From a virus, in the IMG/VR virus record IMGVR_UViG_3300045988_100207: DNA of 64,000 nt, one strand, 5' to 3'. The notes below the pieces were generated by a model. The model searched no databases. It was given only the letters and a program-made list of their open reading frames with translations, and was not told where the DNA came from. Made by a program: the position numbers and the translations under genes. Position 1 is the stretch's first letter. Every line of letters starts with the position of its first letter. Shown piece by piece: positions 6,793-62,457 of the stretch.

Positions 6793-6803
6793 ATAACCCA
6801 CAA

Positions 6804-6843
6804 TCCCCACCCAGCTATCACAGCCGAGTGGGGATTTCTTTTT
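6804..6843 (+). terminator. rho-independent terminator closing the left + array
   Basis: TCCCCAC (6804-6810) pairs with GTGGGGA (6828-6834), followed by TTTCTTTTT. Confidence 0.6.
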
Positions 6844-6905
6844 GCAATGAAACAATCTACTTAAAACCTAATTAATACAACTAACTAAAAATAAAAAAGT
6901 AAAAT

Positions 6906-28411: not shown

Positions 28412-28450
28412 AAGCCGAACTCTAAGTCGCTGACTTTATAGATAAAGAAG

Positions 28451-28476
28451 AAGGGTGAGTCGAATGATTCACCCTT
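28451..28476. terminator. hairpin between convergent genes
   Basis: AAGGGTGA (28451-28458) pairs with TCACCCTT (28469-28476). Confidence 0.5.
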
Positions 28477-28508
28477 TACTTATTTACTTACTTCAATCAA
28501 TAGAGATA

Positions 28509-28772: not shown

Positions 28773-28838
28773 ATCAACCCAATATTGCCATCAGTATCGT
28801 GAATAAGAAGATAAAGAGCACGAACCATTCCTGTTTAC

Positions 28839-32054: not shown

Positions 32055-32096
32055 GGGGTTTGGTAGTGAAACAGATTTCGTTACCAAACCCTTTTT
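32055..32096 (+). terminator. rho-independent terminator
   Basis: GGGTTTGGTA (32056-32065) pairs with TACCAAACCC (32082-32091), followed by TTTTT. Confidence 0.7.
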
Positions 32097-32951: not shown

Positions 32952-33009
32952 CTCAGCATTTTATGCTGAGTCAAAAAAAAGGAGTGAGCCTTGCGCCCAC
33001 TCCTTTTTT
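32952..33009. terminator. tandem hairpins; bidirectional terminator between convergent operons
   Basis: CTCAGCAT/ATGCTGAG (32952-32970), then A8-GGAGTG...CACTCC-T6 (32973-33009); giant ORF stop at 33012. Confidence 0.65.
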
Positions 33010-33011
33010 AT

Positions 33012-42000: not shown

Positions 42001-45000
42001 TTTCGGGCACCATTCTCGTCAAACTCATACACACCGTTGCTTACTTGGCTGTAAGTAGTCAATACATAGTCGTATTCCTCTGGCAGTTTTCCGTTCTTTT
42101 CGATGTAGTCGAGCACACGCTTCACCTCGCTCTTCGATGGCAAAGCAAATACTACATTTCCGTCTGAGTCAGTAATGGCAGCTTCCTTGGCACTACCGAA
42201 TACAAATGGTCTTAGGTCTGGGCTGCCAATATCCACCAAGTCACGGTAAACATCACTCAGCAATCCTGCTGTCTTGGTGAAATATACAGGAACCTGACCC
42301 TGCTTCTTGGCGTATCTGATAAGCGAAGCAGCCTGTCTTCCCTTACCGATACCAGTCATATCTCCAATGATAAAGGCGTTGCCCTTCTTTGCCTGCTGCA
42401 AGGCAAGGGCTACAGAGTCAACCTGCTCTGCAGCAAGATGAGAATACAAATCATCCTTATCATTATAGCCCAGCTCGTCAACAAGGAACTGGTCGGCATC
42501 GCCCAACTTTTCAAGGTTCTTGTTTACCGCCTCCTGCTGGTCGGCAGGCATCACGGCTTTCAGAGTGAATGGATTTCCACTCTTAGGGGTATAGGTAACT
42601 TTCTCGGTGCTTAATCCACGTACGGATTTGTCCACCCGCTGTAGTTGTCCCCGTGGTCCGCTTCCGCTCCCGGTGCTGGCAGGTTCATCAGCATTTGGCT
42701 GAGCGTCATTCCGTCCAGCTCCTCCTGATCCATTTCCTCGCTGCTCGTTGGTTCCAGTGGTTGGTTCTTTGCTTGGAGAAGGCTCTGTCCCTGTTCCGTC
42801 TGTTCTACTATCTCCATCAGAAAGTCTTCCATCTTCTCTTGGCTCGGTTCCTCGTTGATTTTCCAAGTCATCATGGGTTCCTGATACGGAAGTGGAGTCA
42901 AATAGGTCAGACTCTCGCTTACCATCTGGTTCGCTTCCTCCTCGTTTTCCTGCTCGTACTCCCTCTTTAGGAGTACCAGTAGCGCCTTGTTTATCAAGTT
43001 CTGGTTGAGCACTTCTTGTTTCTTCTCCGATGGAAGAATCCATCCGTTCACCTCGTAGTATATCATCTTCAATTCGTTTATAAAGTTCGTCATAATCTTT
43101 CACGGTCTCGGCTCTAGCCTTATCCTTTACTGGTGGAAAGGCATTCTCGTTCAAGCGTCTTCCGTTTATTAATATAATACGTGTAGGGTAGCTGGTTCCC
43201 TGCTTTGCATACAGACCACCATCCACATTAATCACGTCCTCCACATTATAGTGGCTATAGAGATAACCAAGGAAAGCCTTATCCTTCGGATTCAGACTTC
43301 CGTTCTTGGCGTATTCAGTCTTGCCGCCGATGATAATGGCAGCACGACCATCGTCCTTCATGCTCTCCAAGGCATTGATAGCCATCTGTCCTTCCAAAGA
43401 AGAAATCTTGTAGCCGTCATACTCCTTAGTGGTAGCACTACCGAATGGTGGGTTTGTCACCACCACGTCAACGTCCTTGTCTGCAAAAGGCTGAGTTCCG
43501 TCCTGACTGGTCACGTTCTTGAAGCCCTGTCTTCTCAGGTTCGCCAATCGCTGTGCATCAATATCGTTAACATGTACCTTATCCATTGGCAAGCCGATGG
43601 TAAGCATACCGTTGCCGGCACTTGGTTCAAGGGCACTGTCAATCACCTTACCTTTGCCCTTCACATACATATCCGCAAGGAAAGCATAAGGGGCAGGAGT
43701 AGAGTACTGCTGCTTCATCACTCGCTCAGAATCTCTCTGGTTGAGGCTAGGCTGATTCTCATAGAGTGTCTTGATGCGTTCAAACTTCACGGCATCGTTG
43801 GTTGATTCAGAAGAAGCAATACCTCTTGCACGCTTAACAATGGCTGTTTCAGCAAGCTCCTGAAGGTCTGTATCCTTAATATCCTTCAAACCAACTCTCT
43901 CAGCTATCTTTCTCAGTTCAACGATACCGTTAAACTTATGTTTGAAGCCCAACTGTAGGTTCACGGTATCAATAAACTTCTTCTCAGCCAGCTTCCTCTC
44001 CTCGGCAGTCTTGGAGTCACCCACCAGATTCTCCTGATGCTTAGGTGAAGTCTTCTCGTAGTAGTCAGCCCATTCCTTCAAGCTCATGCGCTGCTCACCA
44101 TCACGATAGCGGATATTCATCATCTGCTCATAGATAGCATCCACGTCTTCCTTCTTAAAGAGCTTGGCAGCAGGGGCAAACTCCTTGCGCATTTCCTTCA
44201 CCACGTCTTCAAGATTGTGCATACCTCTCTTGATTCTCAGATAAGCATTCTCGGCCATGGCGCTCACCAGCTTAGGCAATACCTCCAGCTGTCTAGAGTT
44301 AAGACCAACAAACGAAGCAGATATTTCATCCTTGCCGGCATTCTTGAGCATATCCCAAAGGTCATTAACTTTCTTGTTTGAAGCCGCTACTGCTGCATCG
44401 TCAGCAGTTTGCTGAGGCTTCTTTTCGGTTTTTGCTTTCTTCTCCTTCTCGAATCCTTCTGCTGCATTCTTGATTCCTTCCATAGGGTCAGCAGATGGTT
44501 CCGCTTTAGGAGTCTCAACCTTTGGTTCAGTTTTCTGCCCTCTGGTCTTGGCAAAGATGCTTTCATAGATAGCACGGTGCAAATCATCCGTCACCTCACC
44601 ATTAAGATAATCAAGAGCAATATCCTTGGATAAATCATCCACGTCAGCCTTCATGATCTCCTCCTCAGTCAGAGGATGCTCCTTCTTGAATTCCTGGGCG
44701 GCCGCCGCAATCGGGTCAAAAGTAGGGTCTGGCTTCTCTTCTTTAGGAAGGAGTGGGAGACCGCCTTCTTTAGACGTTTCACCATTCAGCTTCTTCATGT
44801 ACTCAATTCCGTCATGAATGAATTTCTCGGTTTCTGCAATATCGTCAGGATGCAGACGCATCAAATTATCATCCAATCCCTTGATATTTCCGATAAGCCA
44901 AGTTGCCTGTTTCTTATTCAGCTTCACACCTTCAAGAAGTTTTCTTGTTGTAGGATCGTCAGAGGTCAGACGTTCAAGATAACTCAACTGCTTTTCAGTA

Positions 45001-48000
45001 GCAGGCTCAACTGGCTCATTCTTGATTCTGTCTAGCGCATTTCTTGCCATGCTGAGAATGCCAGCAATCGTATTACTACGAGAAGGTTCTGGTTTCCACT
45101 CATCATGAGGAATGCCCAGATAATCATCAAGTAAGTCTTCTGCCTTGTAGAGAAGCTGAAAAGCATCATCCTTCTTCTTGATTCCACCTTTCTCAATCTC
45201 TTCAAGCAAAGCCTTCTTACGGTCATAGATAGTACCTTTCGGCATTTCTTCCGAACTGGTTTCGGTCTTATCGTCAATTCGCTCCAACACACCATTCAGG
45301 TCACCAAACTTCTTGCCATCATACTCGTAGTATGAACCAGTGTATTCGCCCTTCTCGTTTGGCTCATCAACCTTGATAACCTCCTTGTCTCCATCAATCA
45401 GAATCTTCTGCTTCATGATAGGACCATTCTTTGATGGAGTCTCGGTTTCCTCGTCCGTCACTTCAATACGACTTTCGAGTTCCTTGTTTACCAAATCGTC
45501 AGGTTCCTCTACTCTTCGTCGCTCTGCTTCTGCTGGTTCATTTCCTCCTGATGCTTCTTGTTGAGGTTCTTCAACGCCTGAAACATCATGGCCTCCTTCA
45601 ATTTCTGAATGTCCTGTTCCATAATCTTGCCATTTTTTAAAGTTCAAATACTCATTAATTAACTCTTCCTTGGTAGGAGCTGCTTCAAACATATTGCCCT
45701 CGCCAGTATTTCTAGCCTTAGCGATGCGGTTGTATTCGTCAAGTAAATCTCTGAAATCAGAAACCTTGCCCTCCAAGGCTAAAGCCATCATCTGAGAGAT
45801 AGAAGGGTAGCGCTTAGCTGCATCCTCACCGAACATGGATGGTGTTCTCAGCAGCGTATCAACCTTATTGCCGCCCTGTCTTGCCTCATAGAGCAACTGG
45901 ATAGCCTGATCTATCTCATCACGAAGAGAGAACTCGCCCAACTTCATATTATCCATTACCGAGCGGATAGCGTTGATAGCCTTGTTCTTCACCGTAGAGT
46001 CGATGCCCAGCATTCTGATAGTCTCTGGCTTGAAGATTGAACCCAAAAGAAGGTTCTTCACATACTCCCTGCCTTGTGCAGAAAGTCGCTCAGGACTATC
46101 CATCATCTGCGCCACCTCGTTCTGTCCGATGATGCCTTTATCTACTAACGTCTTTACCAAGTCATTTATTGCCTTGGAATTGTTAAAGAAAGCATCAAGA
46201 GAGCCATTTCCCTCAATCTCGGCAACAATCGCACCTACCTCGTCAGAAGTCAAGGTCTTAGCCTTGGCAACCGCCTGTTCGGTATTACTCTGAGTCTTCT
46301 TCTCGTTTCGGTTAAACTTAGCGAAGGTAGCTGCATCGTATGGCAATCTCTCATCCGTCACCAACACCAGACGTGGATGCTCGATTCCGCTCTGCTCAAT
46401 CTGCTCTTTGGTAAAGCCGAAGTTCTCGGCATTCTCCAAGAGATCGTTGATGTATTCTGCGTCCGTGCCTTCCTTTGCAGCCTTCTGTCCTGCCATCGTT
46501 CTACCGTTACCATCATAAACGATGCCCTCGTCAGACACCACTGGCACCTGCTCGATAGCCATACCGTTATACTTTCGGGCTATCTGGTCCGTATTCTGCT
46601 GAGCTGCCTTGTCGTGCTCATAGTCACGATCGTTCACGGTTCTGCCCTCAGCATCGGTAGGGAATCCCTCAGATTTCTTATAGTCGTTATTCACATCATG
46701 AGAAGGAGTAAGACTTTCTGCCGGAACAATCTCATAGTGTCCCTTAATCTTTGTCTCTCCGTCAGGCAGCATTCTTGTGCGCTTGTTGCCTACAAGTCTA
46801 GGTGCATTCACAAACTTCTGTGCAGCCACGCTGCCAGCCTCATGAGCGCCCTCAGTCTGTTCAGTACTGCCAACAGTCTCGGCAACCTTCTTGGCAGTCA
46901 TAGTCTTCTTGATATTCTGAGCGTGCTCTAGCTGCTTCTTGGCAGCTTCAATAGTCTGATTCTTCAAAGCCTCCTGCTCCATGATGTCGTTAGGCTCGGC
47001 GGTATAGTCCACCTTCATCTTCTCGGCATCCTTCAAAGCATTCTCAGCTTTCTTAATCTGTCCGTCCACCACCTTCTCGGCATTCTCCCCGAAATCCTCA
47101 GTAAGAATCTCCGCACTCTGCTCAGGAGTCATGCTAGCATAGTCAGGCGTAGGTCTTCCCTTGCTGTCCGTAGCCATAGGAACATCTGTACCATCGGCAA
47201 ACTTACGGGTCTGCTGAGGCTGCTCTACTTGTTGAACTGAGGCATCGCCTTCGCTAGCATTTTCCTCTGCTTCTCCATCACTTCCACTATTGGCATTGTC
47301 GCCTTTTCGAATTTTTCCATCTGTTTCATTGTTACTAATCTCTTCATTTTTATTTTCTTTAGGTTGAACTTCCTGCTGCGCCTTGGCTGCATCCTGCATC
47401 GCCTGCTCCTGTGCCGCCTGATTGTAAGGCTCAGAGTTCTTCATCTGCAATCTCTGACGATATTCTGCAGCAAACTGGTCGATAGGCTGGTTTTGGAGCA
47501 GAGTAACCTCGTCTGCCTTCACGTAAACCATTTCCTTTGTATTAGGATCTAAGCAGACGAGCATATCGCCGCTGCCTTCCTTGGCTCTACCTGTAGTCTG
47601 GTCGAAGGCAACATCACCCGAACCAACAAGAAGTGTTCTTCCGTTGCTGTCTTGAACATACAGAGCCTGCTCGCCATTCATCGCCTGACCGTTCAAGGTT
47701 CCGTGATAGCTCCAATCTGAAATAAAGCTCTTCACGTTTTCCTCTATAGCGTCGGCAGTAGCCTGCTGCATACCCTGCACTCTGGCATTCGCATTAATAT
47801 ATTGGGCAAGTGGGGTCAACTCTTCTTGTATCAATCCATTCTGAATGAGTGCATCGTAAATCTGTGCCGGCGTTAAGCCCTGCTGGTGCAATTGCTCAAA
47901 GGTTTGCTTGAACACATCGTTGCTATCCATCGCTGCATCAAGGGCTTGCTCTGCGTTGCGAAGATTGCGCAACTCATCAACTACCACGCCGCTATCCGGG

Positions 48001-50819
48001 TTGTCCGTTCCCAGACTATGCTCCTCGGCAACCGTCTTACCTTGGCTGGCAGACTGGTCTGCGTGTGGCCTCCAGCTAGGGAAAAGCTCATCTTCGAGTG
48101 CTCTCTTCACATGATAGAAGATTCTGTTCTCCTCATCAGTACGCTTCATCGGGTCCTTGCGCATGATTTTGTCAATATCAATAACAATGCTTCCTTCTTT
48201 ACCAAGAAGTTCTTTGATAGAAGCCATGAAGTTATTAGTATAACCTTTGCTTTCTGATCTGAGGTAGCCAAGCAAACCGTTCTTATCTGCATACTTCGTC
48301 CAATCAAGATAGAGCGCACTCTTCTGGTTGTGCAAGTCATTAATCAGTCGGGCATTATTCGGGTCTGTAATATCCTTATTCTCGTCATATCCGTTTTCTT
48401 TAAGGAATCTAAACGCTAGATTAGTGACAGTTCCATCATCATCTATGAACTGCATATCCTTCATCCTTGCGTAGCCCATCAGCGACATCATATCGTCATT
48501 ATCACGATAAAGCTTCTGCTTGTAAAGAATAGCTCTGCGTTCATCGGCATTCTTATAAGATGTACGTGTAAGCAGCGTTCCATTCTTTGTGTATTCAAGA
48601 ATCTGCTTATTCTTCACGTCGTTCACGCTTCGGTAGCTTTTGCCTCTTGTCGTGTTAAACAGTCCCATGGCCGCATTCACCTTCTCTTTGGTGCTCTGAG
48701 AAACGTCAGGGTCGTTCATGAAATCCGTGTAAGCAGTCTTATACTTCGGATCTCTTGGTGCTGTCTTCGATGCACGGTCCACCTTCACGAAAGCATCCAT
48801 CAGATTCTTGCCAGATGCAGAAGAAATCAATTCATTCTTCTCGTCAGGAGTCAGACGAATATCCACGGCAATAGGAGAGCCATTGGCATTCTTTCCAATC
48901 ACGAAATTACCACCGCTATTATGAGTAAGATGATGCAGAATATTGCCCATCTTCACGAAGTTACTAGACTCGCCAGCCTTGAATGCGCCAACCATCACAA
49001 CATCTTCCAGCCAAGTGCCGAATGAAATATCCTTATCACCGGTCACGTTGTCGGCAACCATCATGGTTCCAGCCTCAACGCCCAGTCCGGCGGCCGTAGC
49101 ACCAAACTTCTGCGCGCCATGAAGCAACCGCTCGCCAGTACTCTTCTCCATACCTGTAATACCGAACTTGGAAACCCAAGGAGACATGATTGCGCCCGAA
49201 ACTCCAAACATCGCACCCGTTACCGCACCATGCTCAGCACCTTTCAGACCAGCCTCACCGATAGCCTGCAGCGAAGTATCATCGCCAGTAGAAGCCTGAT
49301 TCAAAGCAGTAGTCACACCCGAATATCCTGCAAGGTTCAGCGCACCTGTTGCCGTTCTGGTTCCCAATCCCGACATGATTTTCTGTGCCGTAGTCATGTT
49401 GGCCACCTTGAAAGCCATCTGCTGGGCGGTAAGCTTCTGTGCTGCCTTCATCACGCCAGCCTTCACCAGTCCGTTAGTCAGAACTCGGGTTCCAGTATTC
49501 ACGGCAGCACTTGCGCCGGCACCGATTACGGCGAGCGGACCAGAATCAGCAGCCATGTTTACTGCAGTAGAAGCGAATCTCGTACCGATTCCCGAGCGAT
49601 AGGTTTCATCCTTGTGTCCGGCAACCTTCTGAATCTCCGCATCACCATCTGCAATGGCAATACCTTCCTGCAATCTCTGTCTTGTATCTCTAGACATAAC
49701 AGATGGAGCCACCACCATACCGATAATAGAGTTACTGAGGTTCTTGACAATATAGTCAAGCGCACCATGAGGCATGATTTCCTCCTGGTTGCGCATCGTC
49801 AGAGCCTTCTGAGCATAGTTCATAATCTCTGGAGTAACGTATTTGTCCACGTATTCCTCTACACTCATGTTCAGTTTCTCTGCGCTCTCGGCAATATGGC
49901 GCTGCATTCCCTTCTGCGAATAAATCTCGTTGATTTTGCTGCTCAGATTGTTCATCAGAACGTTCTGTCGGTTCACTTGCTCCTGTGTCTGTGCATCACG
50001 GAAAGCCTGTTCCTTTACTGACTGAGGCGCATAGATGCCGCCCATCTTGTCAAGGTTCTGCTGATACTGCTGACGTGTCAATTCCTGTGCCTCATTCATG
50101 GAAGAATCTACCAGTTCGAGCAGATCATTACCCAAAATACCTTTGGACTGGCCGTCATTTCTTACGAACTTGTTACCCTCCACCTCATACTGGGCGAATG
50201 CTCTAGCATCGTCCTCTCTCTGCTGCTTGGCTCTAGCCCTGCGAGCTTCAGGAGTAGAAAGCTGCTGCATCGTCTCGTTGAAGTTCTTGGCAGTAGGGGT
50301 TATTCTGCTTCTGCTGATAGGGGTAGCTCTCTGCTGCTCCTGACGTGCTGACTGCTCTTGTGCTCTTTGCATGCGTGCGCGCGCATTACTAGCCTGCGCC
50401 TGCTGCATCGGGTTCATCTGGTCGTTACGCATGTGCATCAACCGCCAGTTCTGCATGTAGTCTGTACCAGAAGTAGTAGCCGTTCTAGGCTGCTGAGCCT
50501 TCTGCTGCCTTGGCTTCCGATACTGAGCTGCGACTTCCTGCGCTCTCTGCTTCATCGTCAGCTTCTTGACAGGCTGAACTGGCTTCTGCTGCTGAGGCTT
50601 CGGATTTACTGCGTGAAGTCCGAGTCGCTGCGCAAACTCCTCATACGAACTACTGGAAACAGCACCGTCTGCATGAAGCGCATCATAGAGCTGCTTTCTG
50701 TTATGATAGCCCTGCTTGCCAGGCGCATACACGAACTGTCTGAAATGTTCTCTAGTTCCCGATACTGCGCCATCGGCTTTCAAGGCGTTATAAAGTTGGT
50801 CAAATTTATCTCCAGCCAT
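33012..50819 (-). CDS. giant multidomain polyvalent protein (5,935 aa)
   Basis: Uninterrupted 17,808-nt ORF. Motifs: DGNGRTMAG (ParB-like), EPSAGNG + NPPF (N6-MTase), GIGKGRQ / DESH / QMRGRIDRTGQ (helicase), HELIH, HEVVGH. Also Gly/Ala-rich hydrophobic segments. Confidence 0.9.
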   Translation of the reverse strand: MAGDKFDQLYNALKADGAVSGTREHFRQFVYAPGKQGYHNRKQLYDALHADGAVSSSSYEEFAQRLGLHAVNPKPQQQKPVQPVKKLTMKQRAQEVAAQYRKPRQQKAQQPRTATTSGTDYMQNWRLMHMRNDQMNPMQQAQASNARARMQRAQEQSARQEQQRATPISRSRITPTAKNFNETMQQLSTPEARRARAKQQREDDARAFAQYEVEGNKFVRNDGQSKGILGNDLLELVDSSMNEAQELTRQQYQQNLDKMGGIYAPQSVKEQAFRDAQTQEQVNRQNVLMNNLSSKINEIYSQKGMQRHIAESAEKLNMSVEEYVDKYVTPEIMNYAQKALTMRNQEEIMPHGALDYIVKNLSNSIIGMVVAPSVMSRDTRQRLQEGIAIADGDAEIQKVAGHKDETYRSGIGTRFASTAVNMAADSGPLAVIGAGASAAVNTGTRVLTNGLVKAGVMKAAQKLTAQQMAFKVANMTTAQKIMSGLGTRTATGALNLAGYSGVTTALNQASTGDDTSLQAIGEAGLKGAEHGAVTGAMFGVSGAIMSPWVSKFGITGMEKSTGERLLHGAQKFGATAAGLGVEAGTMMVADNVTGDKDISFGTWLEDVVMVGAFKAGESSNFVKMGNILHHLTHNSGGNFVIGKNANGSPIAVDIRLTPDEKNELISSASGKNLMDAFVKVDRASKTAPRDPKYKTAYTDFMNDPDVSQSTKEKVNAAMGLFNTTRGKSYRSVNDVKNKQILEYTKNGTLLTRTSYKNADERRAILYKQKLYRDNDDMMSLMGYARMKDMQFIDDDGTVTNLAFRFLKENGYDENKDITDPNNARLINDLHNQKSALYLDWTKYADKNGLLGYLRSESKGYTNNFMASIKELLGKEGSIVIDIDKIMRKDPMKRTDEENRIFYHVKRALEDELFPSWRPHADQSASQGKTVAEEHSLGTDNPDSGVVVDELRNLRNAEQALDAAMDSNDVFKQTFEQLHQQGLTPAQIYDALIQNGLIQEELTPLAQYINANARVQGMQQATADAIEENVKSFISDWSYHGTLNGQAMNGEQALYVQDSNGRTLLVGSGDVAFDQTTGRAKEGSGDMLVCLDPNTKEMVYVKADEVTLLQNQPIDQFAAEYRQRLQMKNSEPYNQAAQEQAMQDAAKAQQEVQPKENKNEEISNNETDGKIRKGDNANSGSDGEAEENASEGDASVQQVEQPQQTRKFADGTDVPMATDSKGRPTPDYASMTPEQSAEILTEDFGENAEKVVDGQIKKAENALKDAEKMKVDYTAEPNDIMEQEALKNQTIEAAKKQLEHAQNIKKTMTAKKVAETVGSTEQTEGAHEAGSVAAQKFVNAPRLVGNKRTRMLPDGETKIKGHYEIVPAESLTPSHDVNNDYKKSEGFPTDAEGRTVNDRDYEHDKAAQQNTDQIARKYNGMAIEQVPVVSDEGIVYDGNGRTMAGQKAAKEGTDAEYINDLLENAENFGFTKEQIEQSGIEHPRLVLVTDERLPYDAATFAKFNRNEKKTQSNTEQAVAKAKTLTSDEVGAIVAEIEGNGSLDAFFNNSKAINDLVKTLVDKGIIGQNEVAQMMDSPERLSAQGREYVKNLLLGSIFKPETIRMLGIDSTVKNKAINAIRSVMDNMKLGEFSLRDEIDQAIQLLYEARQGGNKVDTLLRTPSMFGEDAAKRYPSISQMMALALEGKVSDFRDLLDEYNRIAKARNTGEGNMFEAAPTKEELINEYLNFKKWQDYGTGHSEIEGGHDVSGVEEPQQEASGGNEPAEAERRRVEEPDDLVNKELESRIEVTDEETETPSKNGPIMKQKILIDGDKEVIKVDEPNEKGEYTGSYYEYDGKKFGDLNGVLERIDDKTETSSEEMPKGTIYDRKKALLEEIEKGGIKKKDDAFQLLYKAEDLLDDYLGIPHDEWKPEPSRSNTIAGILSMARNALDRIKNEPVEPATEKQLSYLERLTSDDPTTRKLLEGVKLNKKQATWLIGNIKGLDDNLMRLHPDDIAETEKFIHDGIEYMKKLNGETSKEGGLPLLPKEEKPDPTFDPIAAAAQEFKKEHPLTEEEIMKADVDDLSKDIALDYLNGEVTDDLHRAIYESIFAKTRGQKTEPKVETPKAEPSADPMEGIKNAAEGFEKEKKAKTEKKPQQTADDAAVAASNKKVNDLWDMLKNAGKDEISASFVGLNSRQLEVLPKLVSAMAENAYLRIKRGMHNLEDVVKEMRKEFAPAAKLFKKEDVDAIYEQMMNIRYRDGEQRMSLKEWADYYEKTSPKHQENLVGDSKTAEERKLAEKKFIDTVNLQLGFKHKFNGIVELRKIAERVGLKDIKDTDLQELAETAIVKRARGIASSESTNDAVKFERIKTLYENQPSLNQRDSERVMKQQYSTPAPYAFLADMYVKGKGKVIDSALEPSAGNGMLTIGLPMDKVHVNDIDAQRLANLRRQGFKNVTSQDGTQPFADKDVDVVVTNPPFGSATTKEYDGYKISSLEGQMAINALESMKDDGRAAIIIGGKTEYAKNGSLNPKDKAFLGYLYSHYNVEDVINVDGGLYAKQGTSYPTRIILINGRRLNENAFPPVKDKARAETVKDYDELYKRIEDDILRGERMDSSIGEETRSAQPELDKQGATGTPKEGVRAGKRGGSEPDGKRESDLFDSTSVSGTHDDLENQRGTEPREDGRLSDGDSRTDGTGTEPSPSKEPTTGTNEQRGNGSGGAGRNDAQPNADEPASTGSGSGPRGQLQRVDKSVRGLSTEKVTYTPKSGNPFTLKAVMPADQQEAVNKNLEKLGDADQFLVDELGYNDKDDLYSHLAAEQVDSVALALQQAKKGNAFIIGDMTGIGKGRQAASLIRYAKKQGQVPVYFTKTAGLLSDVYRDLVDIGSPDLRPFVFGSAKEAAITDSDGNVVFALPSKSEVKRVLDYIEKNGKLPEEYDYVLTTYSQVSNGVYEFDENGARKEKKLAKGKTFGAAALSGQRRRDAIEKLMDNAYLILDESHTAGGNSGQGNYFQHIIQKAKNVTFFSATFAKRPDNMPIYALRTAMNEGGMKSSDLIDAVKRGGATLQEIMSQTLTQCGQMIRRERDMTGVTIDWKAIDDPERVQEQREQYDSIIGLFNDIINFQKKYVSSYVDERNDELAAIQSTMGIKKGTAALGIKNQPFASKAFNTVQQVLLSLKAKSAAERAIDYLKQGMKPVIALNNTNESQTGNLALGEEMDAPDLGTSLKKGLEGTLRYTQKDAKDNSESGYIKLSDLGDEAVEAYHELEKKIEQTSTGLSLSPIDVIKNELQKAGYKVGELTGRQTEFVYNDNGTVTKVKRADTDKKKLARDFNDGKIDALILNKSAATGISLHASSKYKDQKKRVMIVAQQQLDVNDEVQMRGRIDRTGQVARGAYEYVVSLIPAEQRLLMMFKAKLKSLDANTTSSQKSKFNEMEVADITNKYGDKVVREYMAEHLDLYARMADPFGWEKSHGDDLSRIDPQTLVASGGGVGDGEAGADASKLLGRMALLRVSEQEKMLQEIGELYANEIQRLNEMGENDLEITELPLKAKTLHKEVWKQGAEPGGDNAFADNTYIEKVNMAILKKPMKASEVKASQDGLTGGKTWDEYKTEKKAAVKEYFDQKIADETQKYEERAVKAATKAKEKYIKDAKKGQKDSGMSDEQIEKMAGYQYDNIYKQEKDKLNDVMKNLKAKAEMFERVLDTFDTNQTFALPTDMNNPNELSGFGNSYGRLIDIKITDNYSPNASSVSFATLDGRRKITFPIVGKVGAGEGNIDVISAIDNMTKQAISMGDSHLRVLNQNFDNWDRLTSNESRKNGYIVTGNLMQALVDSKDQGLGGQLVKYTTDTGEVKTGILMPDRFDPKGLTTDAPINSVAEKFELSSWHGGIDEVTSSDGEVKVKRIDNNRGYYYELRVPKSKAKGGKYFMDEDLLKLVNGNNFETRGNNMLAEFKPEQLKPVLDRLSKMGVKVQEERNTSEDEGTHFREDRGFQYSKTDTKDVKNSRIIPEDVDKNVSSQIEKKFDDRVDELTKDLSNEDKAEFNRHLDYYTSEFSRYKASEITYTLNGLEDEVRFWGRTFGNREKAGRTHLVQLKRAELEAAKTAARREMDYREVRAKALADGYGLRRGAKASFADISRLFEATNQAKEEGTRRLFEKARDIAKRLGVEFGGMDEGDERGNVGEATPERNINLFIDTLSRTYTNPKEAAHTILHELIHQATMGAIHLVKDGKAEGMLTPKQIEAVKTVIDIYNKVKADGRIVWEEGKRRNYGGKDEYEFAAEMAGGKQRKILGLSLGERIMNAVNELRNRGDNSLWQAVKNAWHKLFEISDKSKMDKALNDIMDDFNEKIDDIAMNDIEENGYAYRVTDKDELDRLNKEKTFRMYSGMQEVDGKLYSPMAAIIDGKRTDATEIGAWMGADERPDLVKNGKFQLVKTDKNPGAGEGPVPAAYNPYMHTSTSVMNDQFSGAYARGNIKVVEWEIPESEKTSGYHAEGAKNSVGLVPWTSGTVNSLLPKDRQRSVMLSRWRKAVRILPDEEVAEKIADQLRGTGLAIPWNVVTPNQLRELVKLGVPITTVEQGRQNPETKEKFLKQMAELEQEFPQAKFVNVKMTKDAFNVWGKDGGIKFRTDHGDGNYPTSSVESHIEKVVQKTGAKVNMVSSVDEITNKAAKAAIEEGRKITGWYDEKTGEVHLYMPNIHDRYTAEKTIWHEVVGHKGMSELFGDERFDKFLREVWYDLDKPENAALKKLVDEERKFNPLNIYDAIEEGIARLAEDGKGEPGFWNGIKNKVSDFLHEIGYRVAPNTKDVKYLLWLSKNLQKNPDDPYWKMRAEAVKYRLDHERMPAVVAHDGMFYGNDGKVRSMDNLTKAEWNEATDGEIHFRTTPSAGTALDRYHRSLDEHGYMFTESYMDNMLSLKKLMNAIVPDKKIEDIASSENPYILQNTMQGAMSDAAQMFERNVMKPLDKAMADVLDAFDGKKDDEKIRNFNLYMITKHGLERNREFFVRDFLRNMRMDEQKKQDADFLENSYYSDKEYLDNELKAGNIDLKEYYRQLDESIRNHFDADFEAGEHDYSGMHAIQEVTKSSDPYNDAEAIQSVMDSEAKMESIKKGAVKDYWDKVKAATQYSIDSDYKNGIISKELHGHVSNMFNWYVPLRKYDEATAEDTYGYITEQGDPKSYIGSTIMRARGHKYLSETNVLAQIGAMGNRAIKNGGMNAIRQAFARFARNNSGNNLITETSVWYEKDPVVNIVYERYPDIPEDATADEINQIVSDFNKDMKMKESQGMAYKVYRRDKIGYKFQRAENKSQHIVDVKIAGRTHTFIINGNPRAAQALNGLLENSGAKGIMKPLSSISRMMAQLCTSYNPEFVMRNIMRDAEFASSNVTSKEGARYGALWAKYYAQLGLYKGASNISFKDLSGTTGLGLFAKYRNGTLDMSDKVQRYFKEFMENGGETGWVQIKNMQDWTKEYKKDVKGERSKIDKGGAVLRDFFFGNLANINEVAENIARFATYCASRDSNRSIIRSVYDAKEVSTNFNRHGSGDAIKSFKNGEMTGGKAAARWTYGFTASYLRHCSMFFNAGIQSTNLLVKNLKNHPVGTSINMLAIPFALGALAALGNNVLIASEDEKDRKGVKDPYGELPDYVRRNNLCIYKGGGQFITIPLAIELRAFYGLGDLAAGLTFSPNVSGQKNPALDAVGCMSQLVPVMDYLGNSSAGKEPLNETIKAISPSALSPFVEWELNTDWKGAPIERRGDWNENSPAWQRAYRGVPDGYMAVNKWVNAQTNDVAKGNEDMLGNSFLDMVTNPSMLNHYIGGIGGGAATFTERAIGVIKHGSDTETKDIPFLRSLLYTPNEQSSLQRTKSKWYNYKDEMEKTMANVDRLKSKNVPIDKRITNIGEYFHFQNSKEAAKVRIIELAEKQMKRWKKLRDKSSDTESINFANQNIDRIMMDAVDELDRLE
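36744..36761 (-). other. HExxGH motif 2 (HEVVGH) within the giant ORF
   Basis: EKTIWHEVVGHKGMSELFG. Confidence 0.5.
38235..38249 (-). other. HExxH motif 1 (HELIH) within the giant ORF
   Basis: AAHTILHELIHQATMGA. Confidence 0.5.
40680..42420 (-). other. strawberry-notch/SNF2-like helicase domain within the giant ORF
   Basis: IIGDMTGIGKGRQ (about 42340-42360), LILDESH (41883-41894), QMRGRIDRTGQ (40716-40748). Confidence 0.7.
43140..43712 (-). other. N6-adenine DNA methyltransferase-like domain within the giant ORF
   Basis: Motif I LEPSAGNG (43611-43631), motif IV VVVTNPPFG (NPPF at 43443-43454). Confidence 0.75.
46380..46640 (-). other. ParB/Srx-like domain within the giant ORF
   Basis: HYEIVPAESLTPSHD ... 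VPVVSDEGIVYDGNGRTMAGQKA (DGNGR at 46500-46514). Confidence 0.5.
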
Positions 50820-53859: not shown

Positions 53860-53981
53860 GGGTGGGGGAAATCGGAAAACCGAAATCCAGAAAAAGGGGG
53901 TGGGGGGAGGCAGAATTTCTTTATTTGTATTATTCTACTATAATTTGCAACGGTGGTCAAAGGGGGTGGGGGTCTTGGGGG
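53860..53981. repeat. three GGGGGTGGGGG-type G-tracts (C-tracts on the transcribed strand)
   Basis: GGGTGGGGG 53860-53868; GGGGGTGGGGGG 53896-53907; GGGGGTGGGGG 53962-53972, then TCTTGGGGG. Confidence 0.7.
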
Positions 53982-54037: not shown

Positions 54038-54805
54038 CTACCCAAGCCCCGACAAGCCAACTGCCTTCTTCAAGCGGTATTGGTTCTTCTCCTCGGGAGT
54101 CATCATGCTCTCAGCCAAATGGTCGCTTGCAGCAGAACGAGCGGTCTCATTCATGGTGTGTGATACATTTGTGTTATCAATTGGCTTTTCATTTGAGCCT
54201 AAAGCGTTGGCTTTCACCCCTTTAGCACCTTCGAGTTCTGACCCCAATTGGTTCACACCGAAATTGAACATAGCATTTGACGCATTTTGAGCCGCATCAC
54301 TAGTGGCTTGCGCCTTCTGCTGCTCGATTTGCTGACGTTCTCTAGACAACTGCTGAGTGTTCTGAAGGTGAGCATCCTCCACATGCTGCTTGCGAGCCGT
54401 GTCCTGTGCCGCTACGTTGGCTATCGTATCGCCCATAGCCTTGTTAGCTGCTTCTTTTGCCATCGCAACGCTTGCAGCAGTTCCACCGCCAACGGCAGCA
54501 GCACCATCAGCCTTGCGGACGTACTCATCCTGTACCTCCTTCGCCCTTCTCATGAGGTTCTGACCCGCTTTCGTATCAAGGTAGTCCGTGTTGTAGTTCT
54601 TGTCGTACCAAGCCTTCTCAGCGTTCGTTCTGTACGTGTTCTCCGCTTGTGCCCTTCTAGCCGCCTTCTTCGCCTTGTTTGCACCAAAGAGAGAAGACGC
54701 AACACCGCCCGCCAAGGCAGCAGCACCTAATATCCACTCCTTTTTGTCCGTGAGTACAGGACAAGAGGTCAAATGCTTTGGGATTTTTGATAATATTTCC
54801 GTCAT
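54038..54805 (-). CDS. membrane-anchored helical protein, first gene of the giant-ORF operon
   Basis: Start moved to ATG 54805 because the late promoter lies inside the longer track ORF; one TM (ILGAAALAGGVASSLFG), A/Q/K-rich helical remainder. Confidence 0.55.
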   Translation of the reverse strand: MTEILSKIPKHLTSCPVLTDKKEWILGAAALAGGVASSLFGANKAKKAARRAQAENTYRTNAEKAWYDKNYNTDYLDTKAGQNLMRRAKEVQDEYVRKADGAAAVGGGTAASVAMAKEAANKAMGDTIANVAAQDTARKQHVEDAHLQNTQQLSRERQQIEQQKAQATSDAAQNASNAMFNFGVNQLGSELEGAKGVKANALGSNEKPIDNTNVSHTMNETARSAASDHLAESMMTPEEKNQYRLKKAVGLSGLG

Positions 54806-54874: not shown

Positions 54875-55289
54875 CTCGTTCAAAATCGCCCCAAATCCCA
54901 CAAATTTCTTTCTCGGGGCGCAACTCACCCCTTCTTCTCCTCTCTCTTTGCCCTCTAGAAAACCCATTTTGTAAACATACGTGATTATTGTAAAGAAAAG
55001 ACAAGTGACTAAATATAAGCAAGTTAGTTTCAGTTGTTCCCGATGGAGAATAAAGCCGTGATGTAAAGAAAGTTCTTATTTCATAAAAGAAGATTCTTTG
55101 CAAACAAAAAAGGATGTTTGCATTAATAGGTACGCACGCACGCAAGGAGTTCGTTAGCAAACTTTAACTAGGCGCATTCAACCTTCTTGAATGGTTTTCA
55201 CCCACAATCAACGCTAAACTCGCCCATTTCTGAAGATTTTTGCGATTTTCGGGCAGTTGGTCGGGATTTTTCCCAAATTCGTGAGTTTT

Positions 55290-55326
55290 GAGCCGTTTAA
55301 GAGCCATTTGCAAGCAGATTAGAGCC
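55290..55326. repeat. three GAGCC(N)TTT motifs phased 11 and 21 nt apart
   Basis: GAGCC at 55290, 55301 and 55322, amid five GATTT(T) motifs. Confidence 0.5.
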
Positions 55327-55421: not shown

Positions 55422-55462
55422 TTTTCCTAGTTGGAGAAATATTTTTTCCTAGTTAGGGAAAT
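55422..55462. repeat. 19-nt direct repeat TTTTCCTAGTTRGRGAAAT x2, period 22 nt
   Basis: 55422-55440 and 55444-55462, 17/19 identical. Confidence 0.7.
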
Positions 55463-55542: not shown

Positions 55543-55589
55543 GGGGAGATAAGGGGGCAGCGCCCCCACGGGCGCAAGCGCCCTCCCCA
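55543..55589. repeat. 47-nt GC-rich structured element, copy 1
   Basis: GGGGAGATAAGGGGGCAGCGCCCCCACGGGCGCAAGCGCCCTCCCCA; two stem-loops enclosed by an outer stem. Confidence 0.75.
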
Positions 55590-55613
55590 TGCCCTGTGGG
55601 GCTGACGCCCTCA

Positions 55614-55931
55614 CTACTCTGCACAAAAGTGGCAAGGCTCGAACCCCTCGTTCTCTGCCTTATAAAGTGGCATTCTTTCAGTCATATCATCGTGTACTCC
55701 TTTGCAGTTGTAATCGAAGTGATAGTAGTATGTATCATAATCTGCAAAAACTTCCATTTCCTCATACTCCCTATGATACTCTTCTTTTTGTTCTTCTTGT
55801 TTACGCTCAACGTCTTCGTTCACGTTGTGAAAGAACGTACTTTTGAAGGAGTACACCAAGACAACCGCAACAAAGCAGAATCCAAGCAAACCGCCTAAGA
55901 ATGTGCCAACCTTACTTAAAAACTTCTTCAT
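55614..55931 (-). CDS. small membrane-anchored protein with His/Cys motif
   Basis: N-terminal TM (VGTFLGGLLGFCFVAVVLVY); acidic linker; YHFDYNC...PCHFC (H-x4-C...C-x2-C). Confidence 0.55.
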   Translation of the reverse strand: MKKFLSKVGTFLGGLLGFCFVAVVLVYSFKSTFFHNVNEDVERKQEEQKEEYHREYEEMEVFADYDTYYYHFDYNCKGVHDDMTERMPLYKAENEGFEPCHFCAE

Positions 55932-56230
55932 CTTGCTATAATCTTTAATTCATCAACTTGCTTGAAGAACTCCTCCAATGTATCGGCAGTATAATGGATG
56001 CCATTATAGCGTATAAACGATGCAAAGTCACTCTTATCACTCTCCTCGAAGAGTTCGGACACCTTGCAGCCGATTATCTCTGCCATTTGTTCTAACTTGT
56101 CTAGTCCAATCTTTCTACGTCTAAGTAGCTGATTTAGACTTGTAACATGCTCATAACCCATCTGTGTGGCTAACTCTGAAACTAATATATTGTGCTCTTT
56201 GCAGCACTCTTTTATTCGTAATTCTATCAT
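55928..56230 (-). CDS. XRE/Cro-CI family HTH transcriptional regulator
   Basis: LRIKECCKEHNILVSELATQMGYEHVTSLNQLLRRRKIGLDKLEQMAEIIGCKVSELF. Confidence 0.75.
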   Translation of the reverse strand: MIELRIKECCKEHNILVSELATQMGYEHVTSLNQLLRRRKIGLDKLEQMAEIIGCKVSELFEESDKSDFASFIRYNGIHYTADTLEEFFKQVDELKIIAR

Positions 56231-56250: not shown

Positions 56251-56258
56251 CAAAGATA
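56251..56258 (-). promoter_or_regulatory. -7 box TATCTTTG for the regulator operon
   Basis: Complement of CAAAGATA, 21 nt upstream of ATG 56230; no -33 TTTG. Confidence 0.45.
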
Positions 56259-56309
56259 CGAAATTATTTTGATAATAGCGCATTTTTGAGAAACTTTTTA
56301 TTTTTATTA

Positions 56310-56326
56310 AGCGCAGAAATGCGCTA
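56310..56326. promoter_or_regulatory. operator O1: AGCGCAGAAATGCGCTA (GCGCA-N4-TGCGC palindrome)
   Basis: Perfect 5-bp inverted half-sites spaced by 4 nt. Confidence 0.55.
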
Positions 56327-56350
56327 TTAATTGTTAAATTCTTTAAGGCT

Positions 56351-56367
56351 TTCGCATAAATGCGCTA
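56351..56367. promoter_or_regulatory. operator O2: TTCGCATAAATGCGCTA
   Basis: 16/17 identical to O3. Confidence 0.55.
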
Positions 56368-56414
56368 CTTTTTGGTTAAATAGCGTGAAAATAAGAAAGA
56401 AATATCGCAGAACA

Positions 56415-56446
56415 TTTGGAACTTTCGCAGAAATGCGCTATATTTG
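56415..56446 (+). promoter_or_regulatory. Bacteroidota sigma-A type promoter (TTTG-N20-TATATTTG), rightward
   Basis: -33 TTTG at 56415-56418, -7 box at 56439-56446. Confidence 0.65.
56424..56440. promoter_or_regulatory. operator O3: TTCGCAGAAATGCGCTA, overlapping the rightward -7 box
   Basis: Last two bases are the TA of TATATTTG. Confidence 0.55.
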
Positions 56447-56803: not shown

Positions 56804-56971
56804 ATGGAAACAACAAAGATGTGTTTATTAGAATTGACTAAGGCTGAGGCTATGGTAATAGCAAACACGCTTAGAAGAACTGCAAACGAGAATCCATTTC
56901 ATTGGAAGGGTAGCAGCGTTAAGAAGACAAGAGACCTGTACGATAACGTACTCACTCAGTTGTACGACTAA
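56804..56971 (+). CDS. hypothetical protein
   Basis: Track ORF (GTG 56741) trimmed to ATG 56804 (METTKMCLLEL); ATG 56777 also possible. Confidence 0.4.
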   Translation: METTKMCLLELTKAEAMVIANTLRRTANENPFHWKGSSVKKTRDLYDNVLTQLYD

Positions 56972-56984
56972 AATATTAAAGACT

Positions 56985-57383
56985 ATGGCAAAGTTAGCAG
57001 ATTATTACATTTGTGACCTTCGATATACCGAAGAAGGTTACGTAATTTTAGACGAAGATGAGGTTCAACCTCAAGGATATGAAGACAATGATGAGTACAT
57101 CAAAGAGTTTTGGGGAGAATATCCGTTTATCGGGAAGTATCCTGTAATGTACAGAGGTAAACTTGTTGATGTACTTGTGTTCAAAGATTACGAACAATAC
57201 TTTGGAGTGTTCAAAGATGAAGGCAAGTGCATGAAGGACTACATAGTTGTGAAAGACTACATTTGCGAACCCGACAGGAAACCCGAAGTTGTTGCACAAT
57301 TCGACACAAGAGAAAAGGCAGAAGAGTACTCCTTACAACATGAAGGTGTATATTGGGTGTATGAAATGAGTAAGGAATGGTAA
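56985..57383 (+). CDS. hypothetical protein
   Basis: 132-aa ORF; AAGACTATGG start context. Confidence 0.55.
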   Translation: MAKLADYYICDLRYTEEGYVILDEDEVQPQGYEDNDEYIKEFWGEYPFIGKYPVMYRGKLVDVLVFKDYEQYFGVFKDEGKCMKDYIVVKDYICEPDRKPEVVAQFDTREKAEEYSLQHEGVYWVYEMSKEW

Positions 57384-57393
57384 GTAACAATGT

Positions 57394-57440
57394 GGGGAGA
57401 TAAGGGGGCAGCGCCCCCACGGGGCGTACGCCCCTCCCCA
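57394..57440. repeat. 47-nt GC-rich structured element, copy 2
   Basis: GGGGAGATAAGGGGGCAGCGCCCCCACGGGGCGTACGCCCCTCCCCA; first 30 nt identical to copy 1, hairpin 2 differs by compensatory changes. Confidence 0.75.
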
Positions 57441-57460
57441 CGCCAAACAGACAAAAGATT

Positions 57461-57724
57461 ATGGGAAAATATTTGGTAAACACGTACAGCACTATCAGAA
57501 AAACAAACGGAGATACATTTCGGTATGAAGGTTTCACAAAAGTGCTTAGCGAGAATGTAGTAAAAATCGCAAAACAAGCTAACAAGGAAGTTGGCTACAA
57601 GTACGTAGGACGTTTCAAAGATACACACGGACGCTATTACACTAGGTATGAGCGCATGGCTGAGGAGTTATCTAACTCGGAACGTGAAGTTATCTACTTC
57701 GTAACAATAACAACATTAAAATAA
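57461..57724 (+). CDS. hypothetical protein, paralog of 57879-58136
   Basis: Shared K..GYKY.GR..D...Y.T.Y....E.L...E...Y...IT.LK pattern and identical C-terminal LK. Confidence 0.5.
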   Translation: MGKYLVNTYSTIRKTNGDTFRYEGFTKVLSENVVKIAKQANKEVGYKYVGRFKDTHGRYYTRYERMAEELSNSEREVIYFVTITTLK

Positions 57725-57728
57725 GACT

Positions 57729-57860
57729 ATGGCTAAAGAAGTTCATGTTATATTGAAGGGCGATTGCTATTCTATGAACACATATTGCAGCACCATCAAA
57801 GATTTTTTGGAAATGAGACACCTCAAGAGAAGTGACGTTTCCGATTGGTGGAAAGAATAA
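57729..57860 (+). CDS. hypothetical protein (43 aa)
   Basis: Read by eye; AAGACTATGG start context. Confidence 0.3.
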   Translation: MAKEVHVILKGDCYSMNTYCSTIKDFLEMRHLKRSDVSDWWKE

Positions 57861-57878
57861 TTATTAAAGTTAAGAGTT

Positions 57879-58136
57879 ATGGCAAATAATATCGTAGAGT
57901 TCAGTATAGTTAGAATACCCGCTGAAGGAGGAGTAAAAGTTGAACCGATTTCCTGTAAGATATGCACTGATAATCGTGTGAAGGAAATCAAGAAACAGAT
58001 GAAGAAGTTAGGCTACAAGTACAAAGGACGTGACAGGGATATGTACGACAACATTTTCACGAAGTATATAAAGCTAAGTGAAATCCTTCCCGAGGAAAAA
58101 GTATTCTATAAGTATCAAATAACAAGATTAAAATAA
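57879..58136 (+). CDS. hypothetical protein, paralog of 57461-57724
   Basis: See 57461-57724. Confidence 0.5.
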   Translation: MANNIVEFSIVRIPAEGGVKVEPISCKICTDNRVKEIKKQMKKLGYKYKGRDRDMYDNIFTKYIKLSEILPEEKVFYKYQITRLK

Positions 58137-58142
58137 ACGATT

Positions 58143-58310
58143 ATGGAAAAGACAATAACGCTTTCGGGCGATGAGATATACAATATCACATCAGCTATTA
58201 ACGACAGAATAATCCTTCTAGAGGAATGTATTTCAAGCCACGATGATACTCCTATAACGCACAAGCGATTGAAGGAGTTCAAAGAGATTAAAGCAAAGTT
58301 GAACAATTAA
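58143..58310 (+). CDS. hypothetical protein (55 aa), paralog of 58323-58505
   Basis: Read by eye; N terminus MEKTITLSGDEI vs MEKTITLTSDEI; both end in K(A)KLN. Confidence 0.45.
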   Translation: MEKTITLSGDEIYNITSAINDRIILLEECISSHDDTPITHKRLKEFKEIKAKLNN

Positions 58311-58322
58311 AACGATAAGAAA

Positions 58323-58505
58323 ATGGAGAAGACAATAACACTTACGAGCGATGAGATTTCAAGCATCACTCTCGCTATATACGACAAGGTAATGAACCTT
58401 TCACAAGCAGTTCTTATTTGTGGTGCGGAACTCACACCGAATGCACAACAGAGAATTGAGAACTTAAAGGCAATCGCCCTTAAATTGAATGGTATAGAAT
58501 CTTAA
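58323..58505 (+). CDS. hypothetical protein, paralog of 58143-58310
   Basis: 60-aa track ORF. Confidence 0.5.
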   Translation: MEKTITLTSDEISSITLAIYDKVMNLSQAVLICGAELTPNAQQRIENLKAIALKLNGIES

Positions 58506-62225: not shown

Positions 62226-62392
62226 AAGCAAGACTAGCAAGGAAGATACTTCTAGGTTCAGAAAAGAAGAAACGATATTGGACGAAACGAGTGATTAAAA
62301 CTTCTTTTGGTTGGAAAGAAGACCACAGAGTTATTAAAGCACTTCAAATTTATCATCGCAAGAGAAGAAGAAAGGAGGTAAGCTATGAGTAA
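62222..62392 (+). CDS. small basic protein, MKxRLAKK family (56 aa)
   Basis: Read by eye; ATGA overlap with yopX; MKARLARKIL...; C-terminal RKRRRKEVSYE. Confidence 0.45.
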   Translation: MKARLARKILLGSEKKKRYWTKRVIKTSFGWKEDHRVIKALQIYHRKRRRKEVSYE

Positions 62393-62457
62393 ACAGGAAT
62401 GGTTCGTGCTCTTTATCTTCTTATTCACGATACTGATGGCAATATTAGGTTGAGAAT

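Follow-up and report, generated by a model that had tools for sequence, protein, structure and literature searches.

We describe a short GC-rich element that stands twice in the early regulatory region of an uncultured tailed phage. In our best reading, it is a structured boundary element specific to one phage family and modular in build, in which an invariant 11-nt motif is joined to covarying hairpins. We tentatively propose, with a confidence somewhat short of even, that the element acts as a transcription gate or insulator and as a transcript-end structure delimiting an immediate-early module, and that it also serves as a recombination joint. The initial annotation had listed a terminator or insulator and an RNA stability or processing element among the candidate roles; judged from position and structure, these remain the best readings.

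The window (the whole 64-kb stretch of DNA that was analysed) leaves about 11 kb of the phage genome outside. Portal, terminase, tail fibre and amidase genes show that it derives from a tailed phage, and the family is one of uncultured, ~75-kb phages of gut Bacteroidota. The host of the window phage is a member of the Bacteroidota, an assignment that is indirect: Segatella copri, one of the three MAG bins containing the phage, gives a hint of the host only. A DNA similarity search with the window retrieved no cultured phage, and the nearest cultured relatives of the portal protein belong to the Bacteroides phages BS-TP4, BKO1-TP3 and BF1-TP2 (31–36% identity). A giant ORF (33012–50819, − strand) encodes 5,935 aa with ddrB-ParB, methyltransferase, Strawberry-notch helicase and LPD38 domains, and is a giant polyvalent protein, a class described previously (PMC5512222). 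Its BS-TP4 counterpart (5,391 aa) adjoins the portal gene; in BS-TP4 a comparable GC hairpin or motif was not found, and a functional replacement could not be read from the sequence. Literature searches returned no description of the element or of its phage family, and a tRNA and tmRNA search of the window was negative. The window also contains a free-standing HNH homing endonuclease gene (NUMOD4, HNH_3, NUMOD1; 10574–11179, + strand) amid structural genes, and a 69-nt inverted repeat (28774–28842 and 62385–62453) with arms that are 99% complementary and 33.5 kb apart, one at the junction of the + early block and a − block (62.4 kb) and the other just past the tail-fibre operon. The features on which the analysis rests are the following.

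55543–55593, + strand: copy 1 (site A), whole conserved extent with the 3′ tail TCCCCATGCC (sequence, repeat and model search)
55544–55554, + strand: invariant motif GGGAGATAAGG of copy 1, the sole part kept in all lineages
55553–55567, + strand: hairpin 1 of copy 1, GGGGGC-AGC-GCCCCC (hairpin scan)
55570–55583, + strand: hairpin 2 of copy 1, GGGCG[CAAG]CGCCC (hairpin scan and covariation)
55598–55611, + strand: hairpin 3, GGGGC-TGAC-GCCC, at site A only, adjoining the stop codon (55614–55616) of a − strand gene
55614–56230, − strand: leftward genes, putatively immediate-early, ending at copy 1 (ORFs and domain search)
56251–56446, no strand assigned: divergent promoter/operator region (Bacteroidota promoter consensus and palindrome)
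56985–57383, + strand: conserved early gene, stop codon 10 nt before copy 2 (ORFs and relatives)
57394–57444, + strand: copy 2 (site B), whole conserved extent with TCCCCACGCC (sequence, repeat and model search)
57395–57405, + strand: invariant motif GGGAGATAAGG of copy 2 (sequence)
57404–57418, + strand: hairpin 1 of copy 2 (hairpin scan)
57421–57434, + strand: hairpin 2 of copy 2, GGGGC[GTAC]GCCCC (hairpin scan and covariation)

Read 5′ to 3′ on the + strand, the element consists of (G/T)GGGAGATAAGG, hairpin 1, one or two variable spacer bases, hairpin 2 and the tail TCCCCA(C/T)GCC; at site A alone, hairpin 3 follows the tail. Two 47-nt copies (55543–55589 and 57394–57440) had been annotated, and both were recovered with exactly the sequence, position and + orientation given, although the similarity between them reaches 51 nt (55543–55593 and 57394–57444). 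That the element is present twice was borne out by a filter-off covariance model search over the 64 kb, which returned these two copies only. The first 27 nt are the same in both copies (two occurrences in the window vs 0.00 expected in shuffles), and all of the perfect all-GC hairpins in the window with a stem of at least 5 bp lie inside the two elements, which are GC islands in AT-richer DNA as described (78% GC against 38–46% around). Hairpin 3, which the first reading had omitted, occurs among relatives in variants that include GGGGC-TAGC-GCC and GGGGC-TGGC-GCC.

The two side-by-side hairpins proposed at first are real, and comparative data favour that fold. Hairpin 2 was reported as GGGCGC-AA-GCGCCC in copy 1 and GGGGCG-TA-CGCCCC in copy 2, and three stem positions do differ on both sides. 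The innermost of these pairs would close a 2-nt loop, so that in RNA hairpin 2 is a 5-bp stem with a tetraloop, and the copies therefore differ by two true pair swaps and a different tetraloop. Compensatory change was confirmed in relatives: three of the five pairs have changed on both sides, none on one side only, and 99% of the cells are paired. The 26 cells changed on both sides, a value reached in 0/500 shuffles, were counted on 42 distinct sequences in an alignment fitted to the two-hairpin covariance model, and the independent substitution events among them are few; the seed of the model comprised 13 sequences, with one spacer base inserted in three of them for register, and the counts come from the real sequences. 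Five types of hairpin 2 stem were found (GGGCG/CGCCC, GGGGC/GCCCC, GCGGC/GCCGC, GTGGC/GCCAC and GTGCG/CGCAC), all perfectly paired by G-C and A-T pairs only. The stem of hairpin 1 is invariant in the main clades, with loops AGC, AAC, ACT or AA, and is lost in the L272 and L333 lineages. The outer stem GGGGA(G)/(C)TCCCC of the initial annotation did not survive this comparison, as it shows no covariation, has eight uncompensated breaks and is missing in diverged lineages. For both window copies, the minimum-free-energy fold is a long hairpin, 0.8–1.0 kcal/mol better than the two-hairpin fold; it was rejected on the comparative counts, being without compensation and broken by the variation of hairpin 2.

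The pairing had been taken to argue for selection on structure rather than on sequence. The first half of this statement is supported by the covariation of hairpin 2; the second half is not. The motif GGGAGATAAGG at the 5′ edge, overlooked in the first reading, is the only part of the element conserved in every lineage, and in a site-A alignment anchored on the neighbouring protein, not on the element, the columns of the 5′ half are at least 98% identical, compared to 50–90% in the flanks. Sequence as well as structure is therefore under selection. In the diverged lineages (L272, L274, L387; L333 and relatives), hairpin 1 and the outer stem are gone; the motif is kept, followed in most copies by CAACG and then by one or two hairpins of the form GGGGC-T(N)NC-GCC. 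The universal core thus reduces to the 11-nt motif and at least one GC hairpin. A 15-nt scan with GGAGATAAGGCAACG gave mostly chance matches, and 11 of its 14 GC-rich matches belong to the family. A terminator-like hairpin near the site-B position of L272 was dismissed as it lies inside an ORF. In six related loci (L333, L351, L389, L396, L399 and L400), a degenerate second copy of motif plus left flank (CCTTTGGATATAAGG) lies ~47–50 nt upstream of the site-B element, inside the end of the preceding gene and just upstream of the true element CCTTGGGGAGATAAGG.

How widely the element is distributed was assessed in several ways. The exact 27-mer is found in 94 stretches of IMG/VR contigs (37–79 kb), typically twice, 1.3–2.4 kb apart and on one strand, and in all ~115 related viral contigs carry the element, with two or three copies per genome. 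A sample independent of the element was gathered through the first protein of the late operon (54038–54805), for which the protein collection gave 1,417 homologues, those listed (120) all being at least 85% identical to it; this yielded 117 relatives, taken as two sets of 80 loci. Further searches for more distant relatives with the neighbouring protein led back to the same family only. All 147 model hits lie on the same strand relative to the 54038–54805 gene, with no opposite hit in the second set. Site A, ~700 nt upstream of that gene, is present in all family loci with enough upstream sequence. Two copies were found in 65 of the 80 loci and three in a few; the additional sites are a third copy in L148, L149 and L158 and an extra copy in L143. 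Site B follows the stop codon of the 56985–57383 gene in 34 of 36 relatives and is missing in ~8 of 73 genomes, where a 1.3-kb stretch (window 56817–58123) is absent. This stretch, which holds four small early genes and copy 2, is absent for example in L179, L198, L203 and L204; the deletion was probably made by recombination between paralogous gene heads, its junction falling at the similar starts ATGGAAA.GACAA. Paralogous tandem genes are also found at 58143–58310 and 58323–58505.

Both sites lie at a boundary between conserved and exchanged DNA: their left flanks form one dominant cluster and their right flanks 11–14 unrelated clusters. Amid this mosaic DNA, the element is thus shown to be an island of identity and a joint for the exchange of unrelated gene alleles, this being a side effect. 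The same observations bear on whether it is more than a selfish or neutral GC-rich palindromic repeat (cf. mitochondrial GC clusters, REP-like repeats), kept uniform by gene conversion and with recombination as its only effect, in which the complementarity of the arms would come from template-switch "correction" of quasi-palindromes and not from selection. We consider this improbable. The mosaic breakpoints at the element, the extra copies at new intergenic sites in some lineages, and the loss of hairpin 2 in ~5% of copies by slippage between GCCCC runs are what such a repeat would leave behind, and a complete lack of one-sided changes is also expected from template switching. Hairpin 2 alleles are moreover common to sites A and B. 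The commonest allele is GGGCG[CAAG]CGCCC at site A (66 of 79) and GGGGC[GTAC]GCCCC at site B. Nevertheless, the two copies of a genome are identical in only 6 of 65 cases and differ in 59. The most conserved part of the element is the non-palindromic 11-nt motif, which conversion of the arms does not explain; positions are fixed in ~115 genomes, with two or three copies each, and no empty site with a clean footprint was found, site B being lost through larger deletions. Two earlier suggestions of this kind fared poorly as well. A REP-like host repeat is contradicted by a search of 185,579 species genomes with the 22-nt core, which gave four hits (three two-copy phage loci binned into MAGs and one chance match) and no host copies. 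A miniature mobile repeat finds little support in two or three fixed sites per genome, and no transposase-like domain or RAYT was detected in the window ORFs scanned.

The copies are always intergenic and lie at the edges of the early regulatory region, where in the window they bracket divergent promoters of the Bacteroidota type. The − strand promoter carries the −7 box TATCTTTG (56258–56251) and the + strand promoter reads TTTG-N20-TATATTTG (56415–56446), both matched to the published sigma-ABfr consensus (PMC7366714). An operator-like palindrome, GCGCAGAAATGCGC, is present at 56311–56324, and a near copy (56426–56438) fills the spacer of the rightward promoter; these palindromes are probably binding sites of the adjacent HTH regulator. 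Leftward from the promoters come the regulator gene, a small gene, hairpin 3, copy 1, ~700 nt of conserved non-coding DNA and the 22-kb late operon. Copy 1 does lie downstream of a − strand operon, as annotated: it follows the genes 55928–56230, which encodes a Cro/CI-type HTH regulator, and 55614–55931, which encodes a protein of 105 aa with a hydrophobic segment at its N-terminus. Among relatives, the 3′ part of this 55614–56230 block comes in many alleles. Rightward, two small genes precede copy 2, beyond which small early genes form a mosaic array. The placement of copy 2 inside a + strand operon, between the ORFs 56985–57383 and 57461–57724, was likewise correct. In this operon most sites other than site A show a regular spacing, i.e., stop codon, ~10 nt, element, ~20 nt and start codon. 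The small early ORFs gave no family hits.

Several other features of this region were recorded. Two direct repeats, TTTTCCTAGTTGGAGAAA (55422–55439) and TTTTCCTAGTTAGGGAAA (55444–55461), which may be a regulator binding site, lie in the conserved non-coding DNA that separates copy 1 from the late operon. To the left of copy 1, a 49-aa ORF (55164–55313, − strand) has recognisable counterparts in L143 and L149 and may be the real first gene of the late operon. An intergenic stretch within the late operon (53860–53981) has long + strand G runs, GGGTGGGGG, GGGGGTGGGGGGAGG and GGGGGTGGGGGTCTTGGGGG, with potential for a G-quadruplex or a C-rich RNA; similar G runs lie just left of site A in L143 and L002.

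Hairpins with 5–6 bp stems and 3–4 nt loops, in one orientation just upstream of early genes, in a phage that encodes a giant virion-type protein, recall the N4 hairpin promoters, from which a virion RNA polymerase would drive the early genes just downstream of the copies. We regard this as highly improbable, and the virion RNA polymerase was rejected as a candidate: the giant protein has polyvalent domains only and no DxDGD-type RNA polymerase catalytic motif. In addition, a host-type promoter already drives the early operon, and RNA begun at site A would be antisense to the regulator genes.

The arrangement of promoters, genes and copies suggests how the preferred gate could work. Host RNA polymerase would start at the divergent promoters (56.25–56.45 kb). 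The leftward polymerase would pass the HTH regulator gene and the small gene and then reach copy 1, and the rightward one would pass two small genes before copy 2, with a third copy further on in some clades. At each gate the transcript would gain one to three very stable all-GC hairpins beside the invariant 11-nt motif; these may pause or stop the polymerase and shield the 3′ ends of immediate-early RNAs, and the gates would keep immediate-early transcription out of the long late operon to the left and out of the delayed-early genes to the right. Since all stem pairs are Watson-Crick, the hairpins would form from either transcribed strand, and one DNA orientation could thus serve both directions. 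A conserved factor, from the phage or the host, probably binds the invariant motif and would set the tightness of the gate. That transcription or RNA stability is affected, and that such a factor exists, is what we infer from position and structure; to our knowledge, nothing is known of the timing of gene expression in such phages.

In our best reading, the evidence for a gate comprises the position of the copies, the covariation of hairpin 2, the failure of the competing fold to show compensation, the contrast between element and flanks, UUAUCU after hairpin 1 on the − strand, and loop sequences and folding energies (described below) that never favour the + strand. On the same reading, the following points count against it: (i) the phage uses textbook terminators elsewhere, which a plain terminator at the gates ought to resemble; (ii) the hairpins have no U-tract behind them on the + strand; (iii) an invariant 11-nt motif exceeds what a U-tract needs; (iv) all copies share one DNA strand whatever the local transcription, for which a role at the DNA level is the simpler account; and (v) site B is dispensable, and hairpin 2 can be deleted.

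The first of these points was examined through the terminators of the window. The textbook A-tract/hairpin/T-tract terminators of the phage lie at 32975–33011, 6802–6845, 28450–28477 and 32055–32092, with T5–T6 tracts; the one at 32975–33011, with A8, a 12-bp stem and T6, is bidirectional and separates the giant gene from the tail operon convergent with it. As such terminators stand at other operon ends, the element is not of the ordinary terminator type of this phage. Neither element is listed by the terminator scan, which found no canonical terminator at the end of the leftward operon (site A). The initial annotation had noted that no T-run follows the copies. This holds for the + strand, where the hairpins are followed by UCCCCACGCC and no U-tract, so that copy 2 is not a canonical intrinsic terminator; it does not hold for the − strand, where hairpin 1 is followed by TTATCT. 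The − strand sequence after the hairpins is UUAUCUCC, with four Ts in eight positions, which is below the criterion of the scan. The element nevertheless shares with intrinsic terminators a stem of 5–6 G-C pairs and, at site A, a position adjoining a stop codon.

An alternative that also works through RNA is a + strand regulatory site of the early operon, acting in nut/put-like antitermination or in RNase processing of the polycistronic RNA, with the motif GGGAGAUAAGG as the single-stranded recognition part and the hairpins as the structural part. Three of the four site types (site B, the third copy of L148, L149 and L158, and the extra copy of L143) fall within the + early operon and point the same way; copy 2 comes after the first genes of the rightward operon, in the place of lambda nutR. 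By analogy, a 15-nt GC hairpin after a conserved single-stranded motif would recall boxA-boxB, and the 1–2 nt between the two hairpins would resemble HK022 put. However, site A, the sole universal site, lies antisense to the transcripts that run leftward there, the early ORFs yielded no recognisable antiterminator, N-like or other, and an Rfam 15 cmscan gave no hit in the window at gathering thresholds and none on the elements at E up to 10. The loop sequences described below also favour the other strand. We give this alternative a low probability.

The loops of hairpins 2 and 3 that are closed by a C-G pair nearly always read T..C on the + strand, i.e., G..A on the − strand, with variable middle bases; only the GTAC loop, which is self-complementary, and a few rare variants depart from this. 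Known stable loop motifs include C(GNNA)G, C(GNA)G and G(CUUG)C, and in DNA the GNNA and GNA mini-hairpins are stable as well. Nearest-neighbour energies never favour the + strand, and favour the − strand by 0.9 (RNA) or 0.4 kcal/mol (DNA) in seven of 15 variants. These features are among those that would fit a site acting at the DNA level, in which hairpins of the single-stranded − strand, or a cruciform, are recognised together with the motif by a conserved protein such as a replication-priming or origin factor, a recombination or structure-specific nuclease, or the ParB-like domain of the 5,935-aa protein. Through such a site, the early region would be singled out for replication or recombination, or for a partition-like loading or silencing. 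It would account for the use of one DNA strand by all copies regardless of the direction of transcription and for stems made of Watson-Crick pairs only, with no G-T intermediates. A fixed linear motif beside variable hairpins is the pattern of proteins that read sequence plus structure, a ddrB-ParB domain is present in the giant protein, and the element is unlike the ordinary terminators of the phage. On the other hand, the stop-element-start spacing in the + operon points to mRNA, the half-sites and spacing of hairpin 2 are too variable for a dimer site on duplex DNA, and a shared orientation is weak evidence with three to four independent sites (a chance of about 1 in 8). Among the scanned ORFs of the window, which covers all but ~11 kb of the genome, no HUH nuclease or transposase, primase, resolvase or integron integrase was detected. 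On balance, we consider a DNA-level role doubtful, though a serious competitor of the gate. A more specific version, which we rate as unlikely, is an orientation-locked site that is recognised in the form of folded single-stranded DNA or of a cruciform, with GGGAGATAAGG giving specificity and the hairpins giving shape; it could be read by a conserved phage machinery, for example by the ParB-like module of the injected 5,935-aa polyvalent protein, which would mark or clamp the early region as the genome enters. Were this so, phages would have a cis site of a new kind, through which an injected giant protein would control the first genes expressed.

We compared the element with known systems. 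The promoter-early stem-loops (PeSL) of T4-type phages (PMC2839356, PMC4122927) are also short, conserved and repeated intergenic stem-loops that act as exchange points in plastic early regions, between conserved and unrelated genes, and the junction of conserved left and diverse right flanks seen at both sites is of this type. However, a PeSL joins a terminator stem-loop to an early promoter, whereas no Bacteroidota −7 box lies within 60 nt of the elements (the nearest TAnnTTTG boxes are coding and >100 nt off). The element also differs in its two or three copies instead of many, its invariant 11-nt motif, which is not a promoter, and its tandem all-GC hairpins. The lambdoid tL1/tR1, nutL/nutR and HK022 put sites are likewise paired after the first genes of divergent early operons, combine ~15-nt GC hairpins with an adjacent conserved single-stranded motif and gate delayed expression. 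They are mutually inverted and give the same RNA in each transcript; here both copies are on the + strand, including the one at the end of a − strand operon (site A), there is no + strand U-tract, and no N-like or Q-like protein was recognised.

Intrinsic terminators, like the element, place a GC-rich hairpin directly behind a stop codon where a transcription unit ends, and in the element UUAUCU follows hairpin 1 on the − strand. What sets the element apart is that its hairpins are in tandem and flanked by an invariant motif, and that the terminators of this phage have long A and T tracts. REP/BIME sequences are GC-rich imperfect palindromes too, intergenic or intercistronic and often in tandem, and they stabilise upstream mRNA and attenuate transcription. 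They differ from the element, which is restricted to phage, has two or three copies, starts with GGGGAGATAA and has no RAYT in the ORFs scanned: REPs have tens to hundreds of copies on host chromosomes, begin with a GTAG or CGTC head and are mobilised by RAYTs (PMC3733652). The RNase III sites of the T7 early mRNA offer a looser parallel, as ~50-nt structured sites conserved in one phage and co-oriented between early cistrons. Those are single irregular hairpins of about two helical turns; the element would present two 5–6 bp hairpins side by side, and its site A is not co-oriented with local transcription. By analogy, the element may function most like the PeSL motifs and the lambdoid paired early-operon gates, with some REP features. 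Each of these systems has defining features that it lacks.

The element is the most conserved non-coding sequence of the regulatory region of this family, and shows at nucleotide resolution where mosaic exchange takes place in these genomes. As a 50-nt part, it can be used in Bacteroides reporter tests as a terminator, an insulator or a protein-binding site. We know of no well-characterised orientation-tolerant insulators in Bacteroidota; if the element is one, it would be a useful genetic part for this phylum. For the phages themselves, a family that human gut metagenomes contain in abundance, it probably offers a way into the study of the early-to-late switch.
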